Source: an uncultured archaeon
GTDB lineage: Archaea; Asgardarchaeota; Thorarchaeia; Thorarchaeales; Thorarchaeaceae
Direction of reading: 5' to 3'
DNA: 15,827 bases
Assembly (NCBI GenBank): GCA_964631415.1
Contig: CAZVZC010000044.1
Span: 1 to 15,827, forward strand
In this document: piece by piece, positions 3,265-11,207 of the stretch
Layout: each line of letters begins with the position of its first letter
How positions within the stretch are numbered: the stretch's first letter is position 1
Position numbers and translations under genes: made by a program
Notes under the pieces: generated by a model
Told to the model about the DNA's origin: nothing
Database searches by the model: none
What the model saw: only the letters and a program-made list of their open reading frames with translations

Positions 3265-4998
3265 CTAGCTCGGAGATTCCTCCGAAACGGTGAAGTTCAC
3301 GAACAAAGTCGCACCGTTCTTCATAGCTCCAGCGTATGCACGCTCATACGGGCCGAACAGATCGTGAAAGCCGGAGTTCACAGCCCATTCAATCCAGGAC
3401 CATGCTGTTTCTTGTCCTGCCTTCTCTTCTGCGTACTCGCCGAAGGCCCAGCTGAGATAGCGCTCCAGGTCAAGCTTGAGGTTCAGAAGTCGTTTTGCTT
3501 CCTCGCCTGCCGCCTTAGGAATTGTCTCCTTGATTCTCGCGAGTTCTTGGTCCAAATCCCGTCTAGTGTCTTGGATCAGGCGCATGAGTTCCCATACTGC
3601 ACCATTCAGATCTTCCGCTCTGCTCTTCCTTGCAGACCTGCCAATTCTGCCGACCAAACCAAACAGGCTTGGCGAATGAAGCACCGGGATACTACGTGTC
3701 TTCAGACTCTGTGCCAGTTGTTCATTCCACGGTGTGTTGAAGTACACACGCGGATACCGCACAAACAGTGGGAATGGGACTGACAATGCTCTTGCGGCTG
3801 GTATCACTTGCGCATAGTACGCTGTTTCTCCAATGCCTCCAATGTGTATCAGCACAGGCAGCATTGTGTCGACGATGATCTGCCTTGAATCCACACGGGG
3901 CGATATGTTCGTGGCGAAATCTTTGAGGTCTGGTCTGTCAGCCGAGGTTTCTATCTCAACATCTTGGCCGCAAGACGGGCATTTCCCTGTGATTAGTGCC
4001 TTTGACCCCTGATCCTCATACTGAAGCTCAGTCCTACTCGAATGACATGCCACATTCGTGCATTCATAGTAGAATGGTACGTACCGTGAGTCCCTTGGAC
4101 TCATCCCTGGTTTGAAGCCCGCCTTTCTTGCGGCTTCTGAGGCCGCATTATGTGCCTTGAGGAATCTCATCCGGGCTGTTCGACTGAGAAGGAGCTCCAT
4201 TCCCTTCACGAGCAGCTGTCTTACCGAGGGATCAGACGCTGGCACAAGCGGTATCCCGAGATCCTGTTCAATGTTGAACAGTCTCGCAAGCATCCTCAGT
4301 GCCCAGTTGCCAAGTGTGCTTGAATTCACGTAGGTGGAGCGAGTCAGGGCTAGACATTGCTCAAGCCGCTCCTCGAACATACTCCTATGCAGAGCCCCCA
4401 TTGACTTGAACAGTGGTCTGTAGCCAGCTCGAATGCTGTCCTCAGTCCTCGAATACCAGTCGTATCCCGGCAGCGGCAGTTTGCTCACCGGGGAATGCTC
4501 GTATCCATCGGGGACTGGGACACTAATCAGGTTCCCGTCCTGACCCGGAACGGGCGTTCTGATGTTTGTGAGTTCAGCTTGGACCGTGTCATAGTCTGCG
4601 AGAAAGAAGACGGGTGAAAGTTCCAGACCCCTGTCGTGAGCCAGTGTGACAACACGTCTGGCTGTGGCTGCCTTGTTCAGTATGTAAGCGGGCCCACCCA
4701 TCACGACGCTCTGATGAGATGCCTCCACGACTCCACCGCCCAAGCGCTCGATGGACTCCCTGATTCTAGGAGTGTAGCATCCAATCTCGCCACATACATG
4801 TGTTAGAGTCTTAGCGATGGACTCAATGCGTTCGGCACTGTGCCATGCCGCGGTTTTGTAGGCGGCGATGAGCCTTGTCGCCCTGTCGGTGATGCCGCCA
4901 ATAGTCTCAACCGGGGTGTCGTAGAGATCCTTGGCCAGTTCAGTATTCTCGCCTTGCCAGACAAATGCCTGGTAGACCTCTGCAATACTGAGGTCCAT
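3265..4998 (-). CDS. bshC: Bacillithiol biosynthesis cysteine-adding enzyme BshC-like protein
   Basis: BshC-type blocks: HQSVVMGGPAYILNKAATA (cf. QQxGLxxGPLYxxxK), PVFFLADYD (cf. PVFWxAxEDHD) and ISPRVDSRQIIVDTMLPVLIHIGGIGETAYYAQV (cf. SPNVxxRPxxQExxLPxLAYxGGPGExAYWAQL), plus a C-terminal coiled coil. Directly downstream of bshA. Start moved to ATG 4998, behind an AAGGAGG RBS that overlaps the bshA stop. Confidence 0.88.
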   Translation of the reverse strand: MDLSIAEVYQAFVWQGENTELAKDLYDTPVETIGGITDRATRLIAAYKTAAWHSAERIESIAKTLTHVCGEIGCYTPRIRESIERLGGGVVEASHQSVVMGGPAYILNKAATARRVVTLAHDRGLELSPVFFLADYDTVQAELTNIRTPVPGQDGNLISVPVPDGYEHSPVSKLPLPGYDWYSRTEDSIRAGYRPLFKSMGALHRSMFEERLEQCLALTRSTYVNSSTLGNWALRMLARLFNIEQDLGIPLVPASDPSVRQLLVKGMELLLSRTARMRFLKAHNAASEAARKAGFKPGMSPRDSRYVPFYYECTNVACHSSRTELQYEDQGSKALITGKCPSCGQDVEIETSADRPDLKDFATNISPRVDSRQIIVDTMLPVLIHIGGIGETAYYAQVIPAARALSVPFPLFVRYPRVYFNTPWNEQLAQSLKTRSIPVLHSPSLFGLVGRIGRSARKSRAEDLNGAVWELMRLIQDTRRDLDQELARIKETIPKAAGEEAKRLLNLKLDLERYLSWAFGEYAEEKAGQETAWSWIEWAVNSGFHDLFGPYERAYAGAMKNGATLFVNFTVSEESPS

Positions 4999-5014
4999 AC
5001 TATCAAGAACCTCC

Positions 5015-6178
5015 TTAGGTGGCAACTGCCTCCTCGAACACCTTCTCATACATTGGCACTATTCTCTCTGAAGAGAAACTCTCAACGACTCGTTTCCGCC
5101 CTGCCTTTGCTAGAGTCTTCCTGAGGCTGTCTTTCTCAAGAATGTCTATCACCGCTTGTGCAAACTCATCGTGCTCAAACCCCTTTGTCACTATGCCGTC
5201 GACGCCAGGACGTACGAGCTCTGGAACGCCACCGGCGGGAGTCGTGACTACTGGGACGCTACATGCCATGGCCTCAAGCAGGACCAGCGGCATGCCCTCA
5301 AGAGTGGAATTGAGGAGGAACGCGTCTGTTCCGCAGAATATCTCCTGCATGTTTGTCCTGACGCCAAGCAGATGCACGTTATTGCATAGGTTGAGTTTCT
5401 CGATTCTCCTCTCCACTTCAATGCGTTCTGGGCCATCCCCCACGATTATGAGTCGGGAGTTGGGGATCTCATTGACCACAATCCGCATTATCTCAACGAG
5501 GTCAGTCACACGTTTGACCTCCCTGAAGTTGGAGATGTGTAGTAGCACCTTCTCTTCGGGGTCGATGGTTTCAGCATCCTCTCCCCTTCTCATGCCAACA
5601 CAGCCGGCTTCCACAGTCAGCCTGCAGTTGTCAAGAGGCTGAAACTGCTTTGTGTCAATGAAGTTTGGCACGACGTGTATCTCCCTCTCAATCCCGAGCC
5701 CTTCGTACGCCGTTTTCTGCAGAAACTGAGACACAGCCGTCACTGCGTTTGCCTTCTCTACTGTGAACTTCACCACCGGCTTGTAGGCCGGGTCCAGCCC
5801 GAGTGTATGCACATCTGATCCGTGAAGAGTCACGAGGTATGGCAACCCGGATATCTCTCGCGCCATGTATCCCGCCATGGCGTGCGGAATCGCGTAATGC
5901 GTATGAAGCAGGTCGAGATTCGCGTCCTTCTTCACCTTCAAGATCTTTGAAGTCAAGGCCATCGTGTACGGAGGTCCTATTGCGCTGAATAGTGGATAGT
6001 CGAACCTGTCGACAAGATCGACGTAGATTCCTCTGGGCTGTTCCCACGTGAGAGCGAAGGGCCGCTGATATGTGATGAAATGGATAGAATGTCCTCTCTG
6101 GGCGAGATGCTCACCCAGTCGAGTCGCTAGAGAACCAGAGCCTCCGACTCCAGGATAGAGGTTGACACCAATCCTCAA
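5015..6178 (-). CDS. bshA: N-acetyl-alpha-D-glucosaminyl L-malate synthase BshA (GT4 glycosyltransferase)
   Basis: Family-diagnostic motifs: IGVNLYPGVGGSGSLATRLGEHLAQRGHSIHFITY, HTHYAIPHA, TLHGSDVHTLG, VTAVS, NFID, HISNFREVKRV and GT4 EGMPLVLLEAMAC. TTG start. Confidence 0.93.
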   Translation of the reverse strand: MRIGVNLYPGVGGSGSLATRLGEHLAQRGHSIHFITYQRPFALTWEQPRGIYVDLVDRFDYPLFSAIGPPYTMALTSKILKVKKDANLDLLHTHYAIPHAMAGYMAREISGLPYLVTLHGSDVHTLGLDPAYKPVVKFTVEKANAVTAVSQFLQKTAYEGLGIEREIHVVPNFIDTKQFQPLDNCRLTVEAGCVGMRRGEDAETIDPEEKVLLHISNFREVKRVTDLVEIMRIVVNEIPNSRLIIVGDGPERIEVERRIEKLNLCNNVHLLGVRTNMQEIFCGTDAFLLNSTLEGMPLVLLEAMACSVPVVTTPAGGVPELVRPGVDGIVTKGFEHDEFAQAVIDILEKDSLRKTLAKAGRKRVVESFSSERIVPMYEKVFEEAVAT

Positions 6179-6297
6179 GGTACTTCACTCGATAGCCGCG
6201 TACTTTTCTGTCCCTTTAAGTGAACTGGTAAGCTCAACGTGAGGCCGGCCTGAGGTCTGTCCAAACGTTGATTAGACAGCTGCTCCTCGGCGAACTC
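6179..6297. promoter_or_regulatory. Divergent promoter region between bshA-bshC and bshB
   Basis: About 120-bp head-to-head intergenic region with an AT-rich TTTAAG element at about 6215-6220; exact promoters not resolved. Confidence 0.4.
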
Positions 6298-6966
6298 ATG
6301 ACTGGCTCTTCCCAAGACTCCATCCTTGTAATCGTGGCGCACCCTGATGACGAATGCCTGGGTGCTGGCGGCACTATAAGGCGGCACGTCGATCAAGGTG
6401 CCGATGTGGACGTGCTTGCTCTGACGGGGAACGACACCCGAAACAAAGAGCTACGGGCAGCTTGCCGCCTATTAGGAGTCAGGGAGGTCTATACGAGCGT
6501 ACGCGACGATTTCGCGATCGACTGGTCATTGGGAAAGGAGATAGTTCAGGTGATTCTGAAGAGCAGGCCATCAACAGTAATAACACACTCTGCGGATGAC
6601 TACAATCGGAATCATGTTCAGTGTGCTCAACTAGTCGCGGACGCCATTGAATGGGCGTCGCATACAACAACCTTTGAAAACGCCCATCGGGTGAGAAGGA
6701 TCTACGGCATGGAGATCAACAGCCTGCACTCGCAGCCTCATGTCTTGATGGACGTTTCTGAGTCCTTTGCCACCGCAGTGAGTGCCCTCAAGGAACACGA
6801 GTCACAGCTGGCAAAGGCTGACGCGTTCTACGTGAGGTTCTATGATGCGAGGACTCGTCTGCGCGGCATCCAAGCCGGTTGCGAAAGAGCAGAAGCCTTC
6901 ACTCTATCGCTTCCGACACATGCAGGCCCTTTCTATACCGTGAATGCTGTCAAGACGCTCATTTAG
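6298..6966 (+). CDS. bshB: PIG-L/LmbE-family N-acetylglucosaminyl deacetylase, putative BshB
   Basis: ILVIVAHPDDE Zn-binding motif, GGTI, LTG...R..E...A...LG, RPSTVITH, HESQ and AEAF; divergent from bshA. Start placed at ATG 6298. The family call is strong; the BshB role is inferred from context. Confidence 0.8.
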   Translation: MTGSSQDSILVIVAHPDDECLGAGGTIRRHVDQGADVDVLALTGNDTRNKELRAACRLLGVREVYTSVRDDFAIDWSLGKEIVQVILKSRPSTVITHSADDYNRNHVQCAQLVADAIEWASHTTTFENAHRVRRIYGMEINSLHSQPHVLMDVSESFATAVSALKEHESQLAKADAFYVRFYDARTRLRGIQAGCERAEAFTLSLPTHAGPFYTVNAVKTLI

Positions 6967-6979
6967 GCAGTTTTTCGAA
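6967..6979 (+). terminator. Possible archaeal oligo(T) terminator after bshB
   Basis: TTTTT at 6971-6975, just after the stop codon, in a 13-bp convergent gap. Confidence 0.3.
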
Positions 6980-7405
6980 TTACCCACTGCCCTCGGGGCC
7001 GGTGTCTGTCTTCCTTCTCCTTGCAGTCAGCAATGACTTGAGCTCACCCATGAGACCTCCGCCTCCTCCTGCGGCTGGCGCTGGAGTTGGGGCCTTGGCT
7101 ACAGGTGACCTCGCAATGCCTGGAGAAGCGGCGGCGCCTGATGCTCCCATTTCGAACCCAGCTGACGGTCCTGCCGTTCTGGCGCTTGCCATCCTGCTGT
7201 CGAGTTGACTGACGCGGGAATCAAGTGCCCCCAGCTTGGTCTGGACATCAGACAAAGCAGTCTGAAGATCGGCGATCGCGGCCACAAGCTTCATGGTGAC
7301 AGTGGAGACGACCGTTCCTAGTTCACGCAACTTCTCTTCACTAGGGTCTTTTAGCGCCCACTCGAAGTCTTCCATGATTCCCAATTCGTCTTTCTCTTTA
7401 GGCAT
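6980..7405 (-). CDS. Small coiled-coil protein with Pro/Ala/Gly-rich linker and C-terminal WH2-like/Ena-VASP FAB-like motif; candidate actin regulator
   Basis: Regular 4-3 heptads (L40 I44 L47 L51 V54 L58 L61 V65 L68 M72), low-complexity linker (aa 73-112, SPVAKAPTPAPAA) and C-terminal GGGGGLMGELKSLLTARRRK. It has an ATG start and its own TATA box. The CDS is well supported; the function is inference. Confidence 0.8.
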   Translation of the reverse strand: MPKEKDELGIMEDFEWALKDPSEEKLRELGTVVSTVTMKLVAAIADLQTALSDVQTKLGALDSRVSQLDSRMASARTAGPSAGFEMGASGAAASPGIARSPVAKAPTPAPAAGGGGGLMGELKSLLTARRRKTDTGPEGSG

Positions 7406-7446
7406 GGCTCAGACCACTCTTTCAGGCCGCAATCGGACGTTTCTGC

Positions 7447-7452
7447 TATAAA
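7447..7452 (-). promoter_or_regulatory. Archaeal TATA box for the 141-aa gene
   Basis: TTTATA on the minus strand about 42 nt upstream of ATG 7405. Confidence 0.5.
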
Positions 7453-9987: not shown

Positions 9988-10548
9988 ATGAGCAGTACGT
10001 ATGACCGACTGTACAAGATAGTTGTGCTAGGTGAAGGTGCTGTTGGCAAGACTGCAATCGTGACCCGATTCTCGCACGGCTTTTTCAGGACTGACTACAA
10101 GACCACGATCGGCTCTCAGTTCGCCGTCAAGAACATCGACATCAAAGCGAGCGAGGGGCAGAGGCTCACGGTCAAGCTACAGATATGGGACGTGGCTGGT
10201 CAGTCGCGTTTCCAGATCCTTCGACCGATGTACTACCGAGGTGCAAGTGGAGGAGTTCTCGTCTTCGATGTGACCCGACGTCGCACATTCATCGTGCTAC
10301 AAGAGTGGCTAGATGAGCTTCATAAGGCCATAAACAAGGACATACCGCTTGTCCTTGTGGCCAACAAGACAGACCTTCCAGACCGTGTCGTGACGCCTGC
10401 AGAAGGCAGGGAGTTCGCCGACAAGCGACGAATGCCCTATGTCGAGGCTTCTGCAAAGACCGGAGAGGGAATAATCGACATATTCGAGGAGCTAGCAAAG
10501 ACTCTGGTTGAGGAACGTGAGGAAGGCAGTCACTGGGAAACGCAGTGA
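9988..10548 (+). CDS. Rab-like small GTPase (Ras superfamily; eukaryotic signature protein)
   Basis: G1 GEGAVGKT, G2 YKTTIG, G3 WDVAGQ, G4 NKTD, G5 EASAK; RabF-like motifs IGSQF, KLQIW, RFQILR, YYRGA and LVFDVT; no C-terminal cysteines. Confidence 0.96.
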   Translation: MSSTYDRLYKIVVLGEGAVGKTAIVTRFSHGFFRTDYKTTIGSQFAVKNIDIKASEGQRLTVKLQIWDVAGQSRFQILRPMYYRGASGGVLVFDVTRRRTFIVLQEWLDELHKAINKDIPLVLVANKTDLPDRVVTPAEGREFADKRRMPYVEASAKTGEGIIDIFEELAKTLVEEREEGSHWETQ

Positions 10549-10625: not shown

Positions 10626-11207
10626 ATGACTAAGCCTGATGAGTACTACGCAGCAAACGTCCTGCCTCCTATTGCGTGGGCTCTTGATCTCTACTTCAAG
10701 CAGGGACTGCGTCAGAGGGAAACAGGCGTTGTCGAGGTCATCTTTCCTGCTGGAGATCACAAGGTGGCACTATCGAAGAAGGGCAATCACGAACTCGCTG
10801 TATGGCTGTCAAAGCAAGATATGCTTGTGAGGGCCCGTTGCACCTACGACAAGAGCTGCAGTTTCAACAGTGACCGAGTCGACGCGCGGGACCGAGAGGC
10901 TGTCAAGAGTCTGCCTTGGGACAAGACTGACCAGACGAGGTTCTTCAAGGCAGTTCGCGACTGGTTGCTTCGTCTGGACTTCGATTTCACCACTCTCGTC
11001 CGAGCTCTTGTCACGGTCTGCGACAGAAAGGTGGAAACACCTCTCACGACTCGGTATGGCAAGACGTTCGACAAGTTTGACGACTATAGACGCCACAAGT
11101 GGCCTGAAGATGCTACCCCTGACAACAGGCCCCGTCTCTTGGAGGAGGTCCTGTTTAGGGTCGCATTCTGGTTTCAGACCGCGGCAGACGTACGCGCTTT
11201 GAAATAG
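10626..11207 (+). CDS. Hypothetical protein (193 aa, soluble)
   Basis: ATG-started ORF that fills the gap between the GTPase and kinase genes, co-oriented with both, with globular composition; no family recognised. Confidence 0.8.
   Translation: MTKPDEYYAANVLPPIAWALDLYFKQGLRQRETGVVEVIFPAGDHKVALSKKGNHELAVWLSKQDMLVRARCTYDKSCSFNSDRVDARDREAVKSLPWDKTDQTRFFKAVRDWLLRLDFDFTTLVRALVTVCDRKVETPLTTRYGKTFDKFDDYRRHKWPEDATPDNRPRLLEEVLFRVAFWFQTAADVRALK

Follow-up and report, generated by a model that had tools for sequence, protein, structure and literature searches.

Many eukaryotic cytoskeletal proteins have Asgard ancestry, and elsewhere in the archaea Arcadin-2 of Pyrobaculum (Thermoproteota) regulates crenactin by means of a C-terminal peptide. 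A complete Arp2/3 complex is not known from Asgard archaea. In the literature consulted, the regulators named for Asgard actin are profilins and gelsolins only, and no formin-, VASP- or WASP-type factor for elongation, bundling or tethering is described alongside them (10.1101/2025.11.30.690169; PMC9433394). Asgard gelsolins have WH2-like LKKT motifs (PMC9433394), and Loki profilins have been reported not to bind the polyproline of VASP (PMC8410842). In human VASP, the F-actin-binding (FAB) segment corresponds to residues 259-278 (PMC10340426). Our literature search found no account of an Asgard factor that resembles VASP, formins or WASP, nor a paper that describes the protein family reported below.

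The locus of interest lies in a stretch of 15,827 nucleotides from an uncultured Thorarchaeaceae archaeon, hereafter the window, for which a first-pass annotation had proposed a minimal Ena/VASP-like actin regulator. The gene is a minus-strand ORF at 6980..7405 (ATG at 7405, TAA at 6980-6982, stop codon included in the coordinates), and its translation reproduces the 141-residue protein of that annotation, which we designate P0001. It is present in one copy in its own genome and has orthologs in 80 of the 85 genomes of the same taxonomic family. An archaeal TATA box, TTTATA(GC), is located 41 nt 5' of the start codon at 7445..7452 on the minus strand: the element TTTATAGC shows no variation among the 12 upstream regions that were aligned for Thor orthologs of several genera, although its flanks have diverged. 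As far as upstream sequence can tell, an independent promoter is well supported, in keeping with the TATA box that had been assigned to the gene. About 10 nt before the ATG, most rows of the same alignment share a partly conserved GGAG/GGGG/GTGG column, in which the purine-rich GAGTGG of the window (7414..7419, minus strand) is a possible ribosome-binding element. The gene is flanked by a PGM/PMM-family mutase upstream on the same strand and by a convergent PIG-L deacetylase, and all 29 Thor loci examined have this arrangement.

The PIG-L deacetylase (6268-6966, plus strand) is itself part of a bacillithiol-type thiol biosynthesis cluster that adjoins the P0001 gene at 3265-6966 and also comprises a BshC-like gene (3265-5049, minus strand) and a GT4 glycosyltransferase (5015-6178, minus strand). 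Elsewhere in the window, a Ras-family small GTPase (168 bits; 9988-10548, plus strand) is followed by a 193-residue ORF (10626-11207, plus strand) that has no match in Pfam or NCBIfam and could be a partner of this GTPase. Opposite the linker and tail of P0001 runs an antisense ORF (6879..7208, plus strand) of 109 Pro/Ala-rich residues, which in all likelihood merely mirrors the GC-rich linker-coding strand and is a putative non-gene. The window belongs to a genome of 2.16 Mb, 85% complete, whose products include gelsolin-domain proteins and a eukaryote-like actin that scores 443.8 bits on the Pfam Actin model. Of the three cytoskeletal components that had been expected of an Asgard archaeon, actin and gelsolins are thus present; the search for the third, profilin, is uninformative because the Pfam profilin model gave zero matches not only in this genome but equally in every control genome.

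The structure predicted for P0001 by AlphaFold2 from a 38-sequence alignment consists of a short helix (residues 3-19), a long helix (residues 23-77, pLDDT ~95), a disordered stretch (residues 78-117) and a final helix (residues 118-134). The N-terminal conserved module (aa 1-39; 7289..7405, minus strand) comprises the short helix, which is followed by a kink at P21, and the beginning of the long helix, and its invariant or near-invariant alignment columns follow the pattern DELGIMEDFEWALKDP...RELG.VVST.T.KL. The original description of this part as an acidic N-terminus falls short in naming acidity alone: residues 6-40 are conserved like the tail, with a pairwise identity within Thorarchaeota of ~75% versus 79%, and F14 is invariant across the phylum. 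The heptad coiled coil (aa 40-72; 7190..7288, minus strand) is part of the long helix, and the hydrophobic residues 40, 44, 47, 51, 54, 58, 61, 65, 68, and 72 form an unbroken 4-3 spacing of ~5 heptads; together with the high pLDDT, this bears out the regular coiled coil that had been read from the letters. Its sequence is variable (37% identity within Thor) with the heptad pattern kept, and such a stalk would be expected to oligomerize. The linker (aa 78-117; 7055..7174, minus strand) is rich in Ala, Pro, Gly, and Ser and, at a pLDDT below 50, is predicted to be disordered, as had been surmised; its length and sequence vary among relatives. The poly-Gly lead-in to the tail is indeed present in P0001 but is not conserved, varying among relatives. 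The C-terminal amphipathic basic helix LMGELKSLLTARRRK (aa 118-132; 7010..7054, minus strand), which is indicated both by conservation and by the AlphaFold2 model (block mean pLDDT of 82 for residues 121-130), lies in the motif GGGGGLMGELKSLLTARRRKT at nt 7007-7069, exactly where the latter had been placed. Within this tail, E121 and K123 are invariant and L122 and R129 near-invariant across the phylum, and the consensus reads [LIM]-[MQ]-x-E-L-K-x-[LA]-[LF]-x-[AK]-R-[RK]-[RK].

This architecture recurs throughout much of the Asgard phylum. A single-sequence search of 5.8 billion proteins yielded 19 homologs of 103-163 aa, of which the named ones are Thorarchaeota, and an HMMER scan of 1.8 billion representatives returned, outside the family, nothing but repetitive coiled-coil proteins. 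At a cutoff of E<=0.01, a family profile, which scores the window copy at 207.7 bits, has matches in 297 of the 400 Asgard genomes searched, although the faintest matches may reflect coiled-coil noise; full-length matches (E 1e-8 to 1e-15) are found in many other Asgard families, including three single-contig genomes. The 26-column tail profile alone still finds the family in 282 of the 400 genomes, mostly with one copy each. When profiles of the tail plus linker and of the N-terminal module were used separately to look for longer proteins, the best 120 of 232 and the best 120 of 176 matches, respectively, were all small stand-alone proteins, with no new fusion partners among them. The named proteins among these matches belong to Thor, Loki, Promethearchaeota or Hodarchaeota, save one tandem pair. 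It had been stipulated at the outset that a motif common in actin-less prokaryotes would speak against an actin-related function; because the named matches are Asgard, this one oddly named pair apart, no such spread is seen. The pair in question, P0046 and P0144, resides on an 11431-base contig filed under the bacterial name 'Candidatus Deferrimicrobium sp.', which is probably a mis-binned Asgard contig, and a second tandem pair of family members occurs in an Asgard genome of our set (G124, locus L040).

Distant members have a common layout: a [DE][DE]F helix, a P-x-x-E-[KR]-h-x-x-h-x-[DE]-h-h segment, a heptad coil, a low-complexity linker, and a C-terminal helix. We delimited the family by the [DE][DE]F helix, the heptad coil, the low-complexity linker, an end helix of the form hh-x-E-L-K-x-h-h-x-x-R, and a length of 120-190 aa. 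P0001 displays these features and can be aligned over its full length with members of the Thor and Loki types, and on sequence grounds it can be assigned to this pan-Asgard family, which we label 'EEF-helix / coiled coil / Pro-rich linker / ELK tail'. In comparisons of Thor with the other lineages, identity is 49% for the tail and 17-34% for the other parts, which is the pattern of a constant tail behind a varying linker that the first-pass annotation had anticipated. Searches of Pfam, NCBIfam, PDB sequences (with the single sequence and with the tail profile), and the ESM Atlas, as well as Foldseek on the AlphaFold2 model, produced coiled-coil noise or the family's own clusters only. The label PARG_cat_N on one protein, P0154, was rejected as it stems from a duplicated fragment. 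The family is not a universal companion of Asgard actin, because five well-assembled genomes of the families f4, f8, and f29, each with an actin at 380-455 bits, yielded no member with either the full-length or the tail profile; homologs in these families may be too diverged for detection.

The relatives differ considerably in the arm that precedes the tail and in the proteins into which the module is built. P0001 has no run of four or more consecutive prolines, which agrees with the initial remark that it has no true polyproline run, and runs of at least five prolines are absent from all 29 Thor copies versus 8 of 20 copies of other lineages; runs of at least four occur in 11 of these 20 non-Thor copies, directly before the tail. 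An example is APPPPPGRTPGSPPPPPGRAPPPPGR in the member from a low-GC Loki genome of 6.0 Mb (G138). Only ~15 places in this genome encode five consecutive prolines or glycines, and runs of at least five prolines are found in only four plausible proteins, among which the family member has the most tracts. Two further small proteins of the same genome carry P6 tracts (L105:1752-2270:+ and L109:1700-2341:-) and have no match to the family; the former also combines a coiled coil with a C-terminal helix, and its candidacy as a relative was rejected at an hhalign probability of 2%. Both are possible profilin ligands.

In other genomes, the C-terminus of long Arf/RagA-Gtr1-like GTPases (417-476 aa) is extended by the whole module, from helix and coil to Pro-rich arm and tail (L059:139-1566 and L062:328-1578, both on the plus strand, and L065; genomes G281 and G170). 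Lokiarchaeum ossiferum has 27 paralogs of this long Arf-like GTPase family. A partial tail is located inside an LRR protein. A 310-residue protein (L061:1318-2247:- in G128), for which Pfam gives no informative match, contains three tail-like helices, one N-terminal (MMNELKGLFSRYK), one internal (SLRTALMMELQRLFAARRQ), and one C-terminal (RSLIEELRLFFARR), and the arrangement of these helices in series is reminiscent of tandem-WH2 proteins. The tail is found on no gelsolin-domain ORF in the six genomes G000, G135, G138, G143, G170, and G182. An ORF of G143 that ends in ...APPPPGSAPKSPQTLRGGMTEELKTLFSKTKEEETVE (L073, plus strand, 2255 to the end of the locus) lies directly downstream of a two-domain gelsolin gene; it matches the tail only weakly (10.8 bits) and may run past the stretch analyzed.

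The proposal of an Ena/VASP-like function had been derived from the resemblance of the tail to the FAB segment of human VASP, whose sequence had been given correctly (PMC10340426). The two align gap-free, and the spacing is identical in the Loki-type tail, IM-x-ELK-x-LF-x-KRKK. On a weighted PSSM of 14 core columns, VASP FAB scores 16.5 bits versus 30-40 bits for family members. A score of at least 16.5 bits is reached by random 14-mers at a rate of 6e-7 to 1e-6, by shuffles of the VASP peptide at a rate of 2.2e-4, and by 3 unrelated windows in 1.0 million six-frame ORF windows of the organism's own genome. Taken as one comparison specified in advance, the match is striking; taken as the best outcome of an open-ended comparison with all known motifs, it is only suggestive. 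Because three unrelated windows of the own genome equal or exceed its score, VASP would not stand out in a scan of a whole proteome, and several equally good matches would be expected from a scan of the human proteome. The FAB resemblance of the tail, gap-free and at ~1e-6 per window but not unique within a proteome, is real, if modest.

Other known motifs are further removed from the tail. A profile comparison with WH2, which had been suggested as a check, gave no support: hmmscan of the tails of the window copy and of a Loki copy finds no Pfam WH2 match at E<=10, and a search of the tail profile against all PDB chains likewise yields nothing at E<=10. With the human N-WASP sequences (PMC5609757), the WH2 scores -11.9 bits on the tail PSSM, and the C helix was rejected as a counterpart at 3.7 bits. 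The pattern L[KR][KRH][TV] / LKK[TV] occurs in only 1 of 49 family members and the pattern [DE]xxLxxRLxxL[KR] of MIM1, the MIT-interacting motif of ESCRT-III C-termini, in 0 of 49. Moreover, a Pfam scan of P0001 gives no family at all at E<=0.01, hence no EVH1 (WH1), for which the 39-residue helical N-terminal module would be too short, and no VASP_tetra, the coil of P0001 being N-terminal and built of ordinary heptads; a second motif that could serve as a GAB (KLRK/WH2-like) site is not seen in P0001. Scan and motif patterns therefore agree with the initial statement that EVH1 and a separate GAB motif are lacking. The designation as an Ena/VASP-type regulator, however, is not sustained: P0001 is not a member of Ena/VASP because it has no EVH1, no GAB, and no VASP tetramerization domain and because the order of its modules is reversed. 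By analogy, P0001, which we place outside both the Ena/VASP and the WH2 families, would at most function like the FAB-plus-oligomerization part of EVH2.

Direct information on a family member comes from a 2025 preprint on L. ossiferum that reports 16 proteomes and a lokiactin co-immunoprecipitation (10.1101/2025.11.30.690169). The latter enriched lokiactin, five gelsolin-homology proteins, a profilin, and an Arf GTPase, and its authors note that the method under-represents membrane-associated proteins (10.1101/2025.11.30.690169). The masses of three ORFs of the Loki genome G138 (36.62, 29.91, and 38.12 kDa) correspond to those published for gelsolins and the 'Arf' (36.6, 29.89, and 38.1 kDa), which identifies this genome as L. 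ossiferum B35 or a near-identical strain. By ORF masses and gene order, its family member (G138:C1:2628799-2629257, 152 aa, 16.14 kDa) was assigned to GNAMCCOK_02219; the anchors are the upstream gene (24.03 kDa versus 24.01 kDa for tag 02218) and an ORF 49 genes downstream (53.86 versus 53.82 kDa for tag 02268). GNAMCCOK_02219 was quantified in 16 of 16 proteome columns; its log2 intensity averages 18.47, and its position in the sorted table suggests an abundance rank of ~400-500. In the lokiactin co-immunoprecipitation, it is missing from the ratio-sorted rows down to log2 -1.06, a range beyond which lie 841 lower or unquantified rows. Because it is present in all proteome columns and absent from the co-immunoprecipitation rows above -1.06, the Loki ortholog is expressed and, in the conditions used there, not lokiactin-enriched. 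This result counts against a stable, stoichiometric association of the ortholog with actin; a weak, salt-sensitive or membrane-proximal interaction would be compatible with it. The co-enriched 'Arf' is L100:1174-2160:- (38.12 kDa), which belongs to the same long GTPase family as the fusions and is without the tail.

The gene directly upstream of GNAMCCOK_02219, GNAMCCOK_02218 (L042:3193-3810:+), encodes a 206-residue protein with an Elf1-like zinc ribbon that was modestly enriched with lokiactin (log2 1.36, adjusted p 0.034); an Elf1-like gene has this position in three Loki loci of family f21, and homologs occur in seven loci. Recurrent neighbors of Loki-type copies are Elf1-like, radical SAM, eRF1-like, hexapeptide transferase, and molybdopterin enzyme genes, and none of the recurrent neighbors of the Thor or Loki-type copies examined is cytoskeletal. 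With the Loki ortholog absent from the co-immunoprecipitation rows above -1.06 and the neighborhoods devoid of cytoskeletal genes, the actin filament binder of the first-pass annotation is to be regarded as a candidate only.

The architecture argues for an oligomeric tether with flexible arms that presents several partner-binding helices. The N-terminal helix and the coiled coil of ~5 heptads would form an oligomeric stalk, from which each chain would extend a disordered arm of ~40 residues bearing the amphipathic basic end helix. This helix would dock onto a conserved protein surface, with actin as the likeliest single partner: several weak filament-binding helices per stalk would provide avidity and thereby tethering or bundling, comparable to FAB plus tetramerization in Ena/VASP, and the PPPPP tracts that immediately precede the helix in Loki-type members could additionally recruit profilin-actin. 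We put forward this small cytosolic coiled-coil tether, with actin as its most plausible partner, tentatively and at clearly less than even confidence. It is favored by the tail being the part best conserved between distant lineages, with acidic and basic invariant residues flanking L122, by the FAB-like pattern of this tail, the polyproline tracts of its relatives, the confinement of the family to Asgard archaea, and the fusions to GTPases, by the actin and gelsolins of the own genome, and by the co-purification of a tail-less paralog of the fusion GTPases with lokiactin. Against it stand the co-immunoprecipitation result, a FAB score below the range of 30-40 bits of members, the missing WH2 match, the non-cytoskeletal neighbors, the actin-bearing genomes of other Asgard families without a member, the reported failure of Loki profilins to bind VASP polyproline (PMC8410842), and the lack of polyproline in P0001. 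Because of the co-immunoprecipitation result, the uninformative neighborhoods, and the modest statistics, we do not rate actin higher than this.

Similar weight is due to the same tether with a different partner, in which the end helix would bind a conserved non-actin protein, namely a small-GTPase or membrane-trafficking component or another housekeeping complex, and the protein would be an adaptor unrelated to the cytoskeleton; this, too, we consider possible at less than even confidence. The fusion of the module to Arf/RagA-like GTPases would fit such a partner, as would the absence of the Loki ortholog from the lokiactin rows above log2 -1.06, the neighborhoods without cytoskeletal genes, the actin-bearing lineages without the family, and a VASP resemblance within proteome-scale chance. 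However, Pfam, NCBIfam, PDB, atlas, and fold searches point to no specific alternative, no member has the MIM1 (MIT-binding) pattern, and the layout of polyproline plus helix is typical of actin-assembly factors. The end helix could instead serve to target membranes, like the amphipathic helices of MinD or FtsA, and the basic tail would then hold a peripheral coiled-coil scaffold on acidic lipids. The tail is amphipathic with a net charge of +3 to +4, its HeliQuest-type factor D of 1.3-1.6 is near the lipid-binding threshold, and the under-representation of membrane-associated proteins in the co-immunoprecipitation (10.1101/2025.11.30.690169) would fit the ortholog's absence from the enriched rows. 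We nevertheless deem this unlikely, as the hydrophobic moment is modest (0.32-0.35), the mean hydrophobicity is low (~0.2), and the motif is near-identical phylum-wide with an invariant Glu and Lys, whereas lipid-binding helices tolerate substitution. An invariant Glu and Lys in a modestly amphipathic helix (moment ~0.33) therefore point to a conserved protein partner rather than to lipid.

A separate issue is whether the likeness to eukaryotic factors reflects convergence or common descent. That the family is a very remote true homolog of the Ena/VASP EVH2 or of the actin-binding region of the WASP family would accord with the gap-free alignment of VASP FAB, with the polyproline directly upstream of the tail in Loki-type members, and with the established Asgard ancestry of many eukaryotic cytoskeletal proteins. 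Yet a match of 14 residues and 16.5 bits is too short to establish homology, matches to EVH1, GAB, and VASP_tetra are lacking, the modules stand in the opposite order, VASP has Asn where the family has the invariant K123, and neither the N-WASP C helix nor WH2 matches the tail PSSM, so that we hold common descent to be very improbable. The actin tether can also be taken to its furthest form, in which the family would be an Asgard actin-assembly or bundling factor: its ELK helices would hold or bundle lokiactin filaments, the PPPPP of Loki members would feed in profilin-actin, and the whole would be a minimal pre-eukaryotic counterpart, possibly an ancestor, of the Ena/VASP and WASP logic. In this far-reaching version the proposal is decidedly doubtful.

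The described regulators of Asgard actin being what they are, the family is one of few concrete candidates for an elongation, bundling or tethering factor, because it is conserved, expressed, and Asgard-specific and combines a putatively oligomerizing coil with proline-rich arms and a near-invariant end helix. If actin binding is true, multivalent actin regulators of the proline-rich-plus-helix type would predate eukaryogenesis; if the partner is not actin, the family would still represent a new adaptor module of the Asgard phylum, one that Arf/Rag-like GTPases have incorporated as well. The co-immunoprecipitation result tempers the actin reading.

Compared with known systems, Arcadin-2 resembles P0001 in being a small archaeal protein with a short C-terminal helix, which in its case regulates an actin homolog; it differs in coming from another lineage and in having no coiled coil with a Pro-rich arm, and the PDB-wide profile search (E<=10) reveals no sequence similarity. 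The WH2 motif (PF02205; N-WASP, WAVE, WIP, thymosin beta-4) likewise consists of an amphipathic helix and subsequent basic residues after a Pro-rich stretch, whereas the spacer between helix and basic cluster is much shorter in the family. The C helix of the WASP family, in human N-WASP ...GIVGALMEVMQKRSKAI... (PMC5609757), shares GA[LI]M-x-x-[LM] with the Loki-type RGAIMGELK, and some Loki members continue after the tail with an acidic run, KRRTDDDDDD, that recalls the WASP C+A arrangement but has no conserved Trp; the C helix itself reaches no more than the 3.7 bits given above. A parallel is also provided by the Ena/VASP EVH2 (PMC10340426): here as there, an amphipathic helix with a basic tail, hh-x-E-h-x-x-h-h-x-+-+-+-+, is linked to a coiled coil that presents, or in P0001 would present, several copies of it, and is preceded by a Pro-rich region, which is represented by PPPPP in Loki-type relatives and accompanied by a poly-Gly lead-in in P0001. 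The coil of P0001, in contrast, is N-terminal, while that of VASP is C-terminal and right-handed, P0001 has neither an EVH1 nor a G-actin site, and the invariant K123 of the family is replaced by Asn in VASP.
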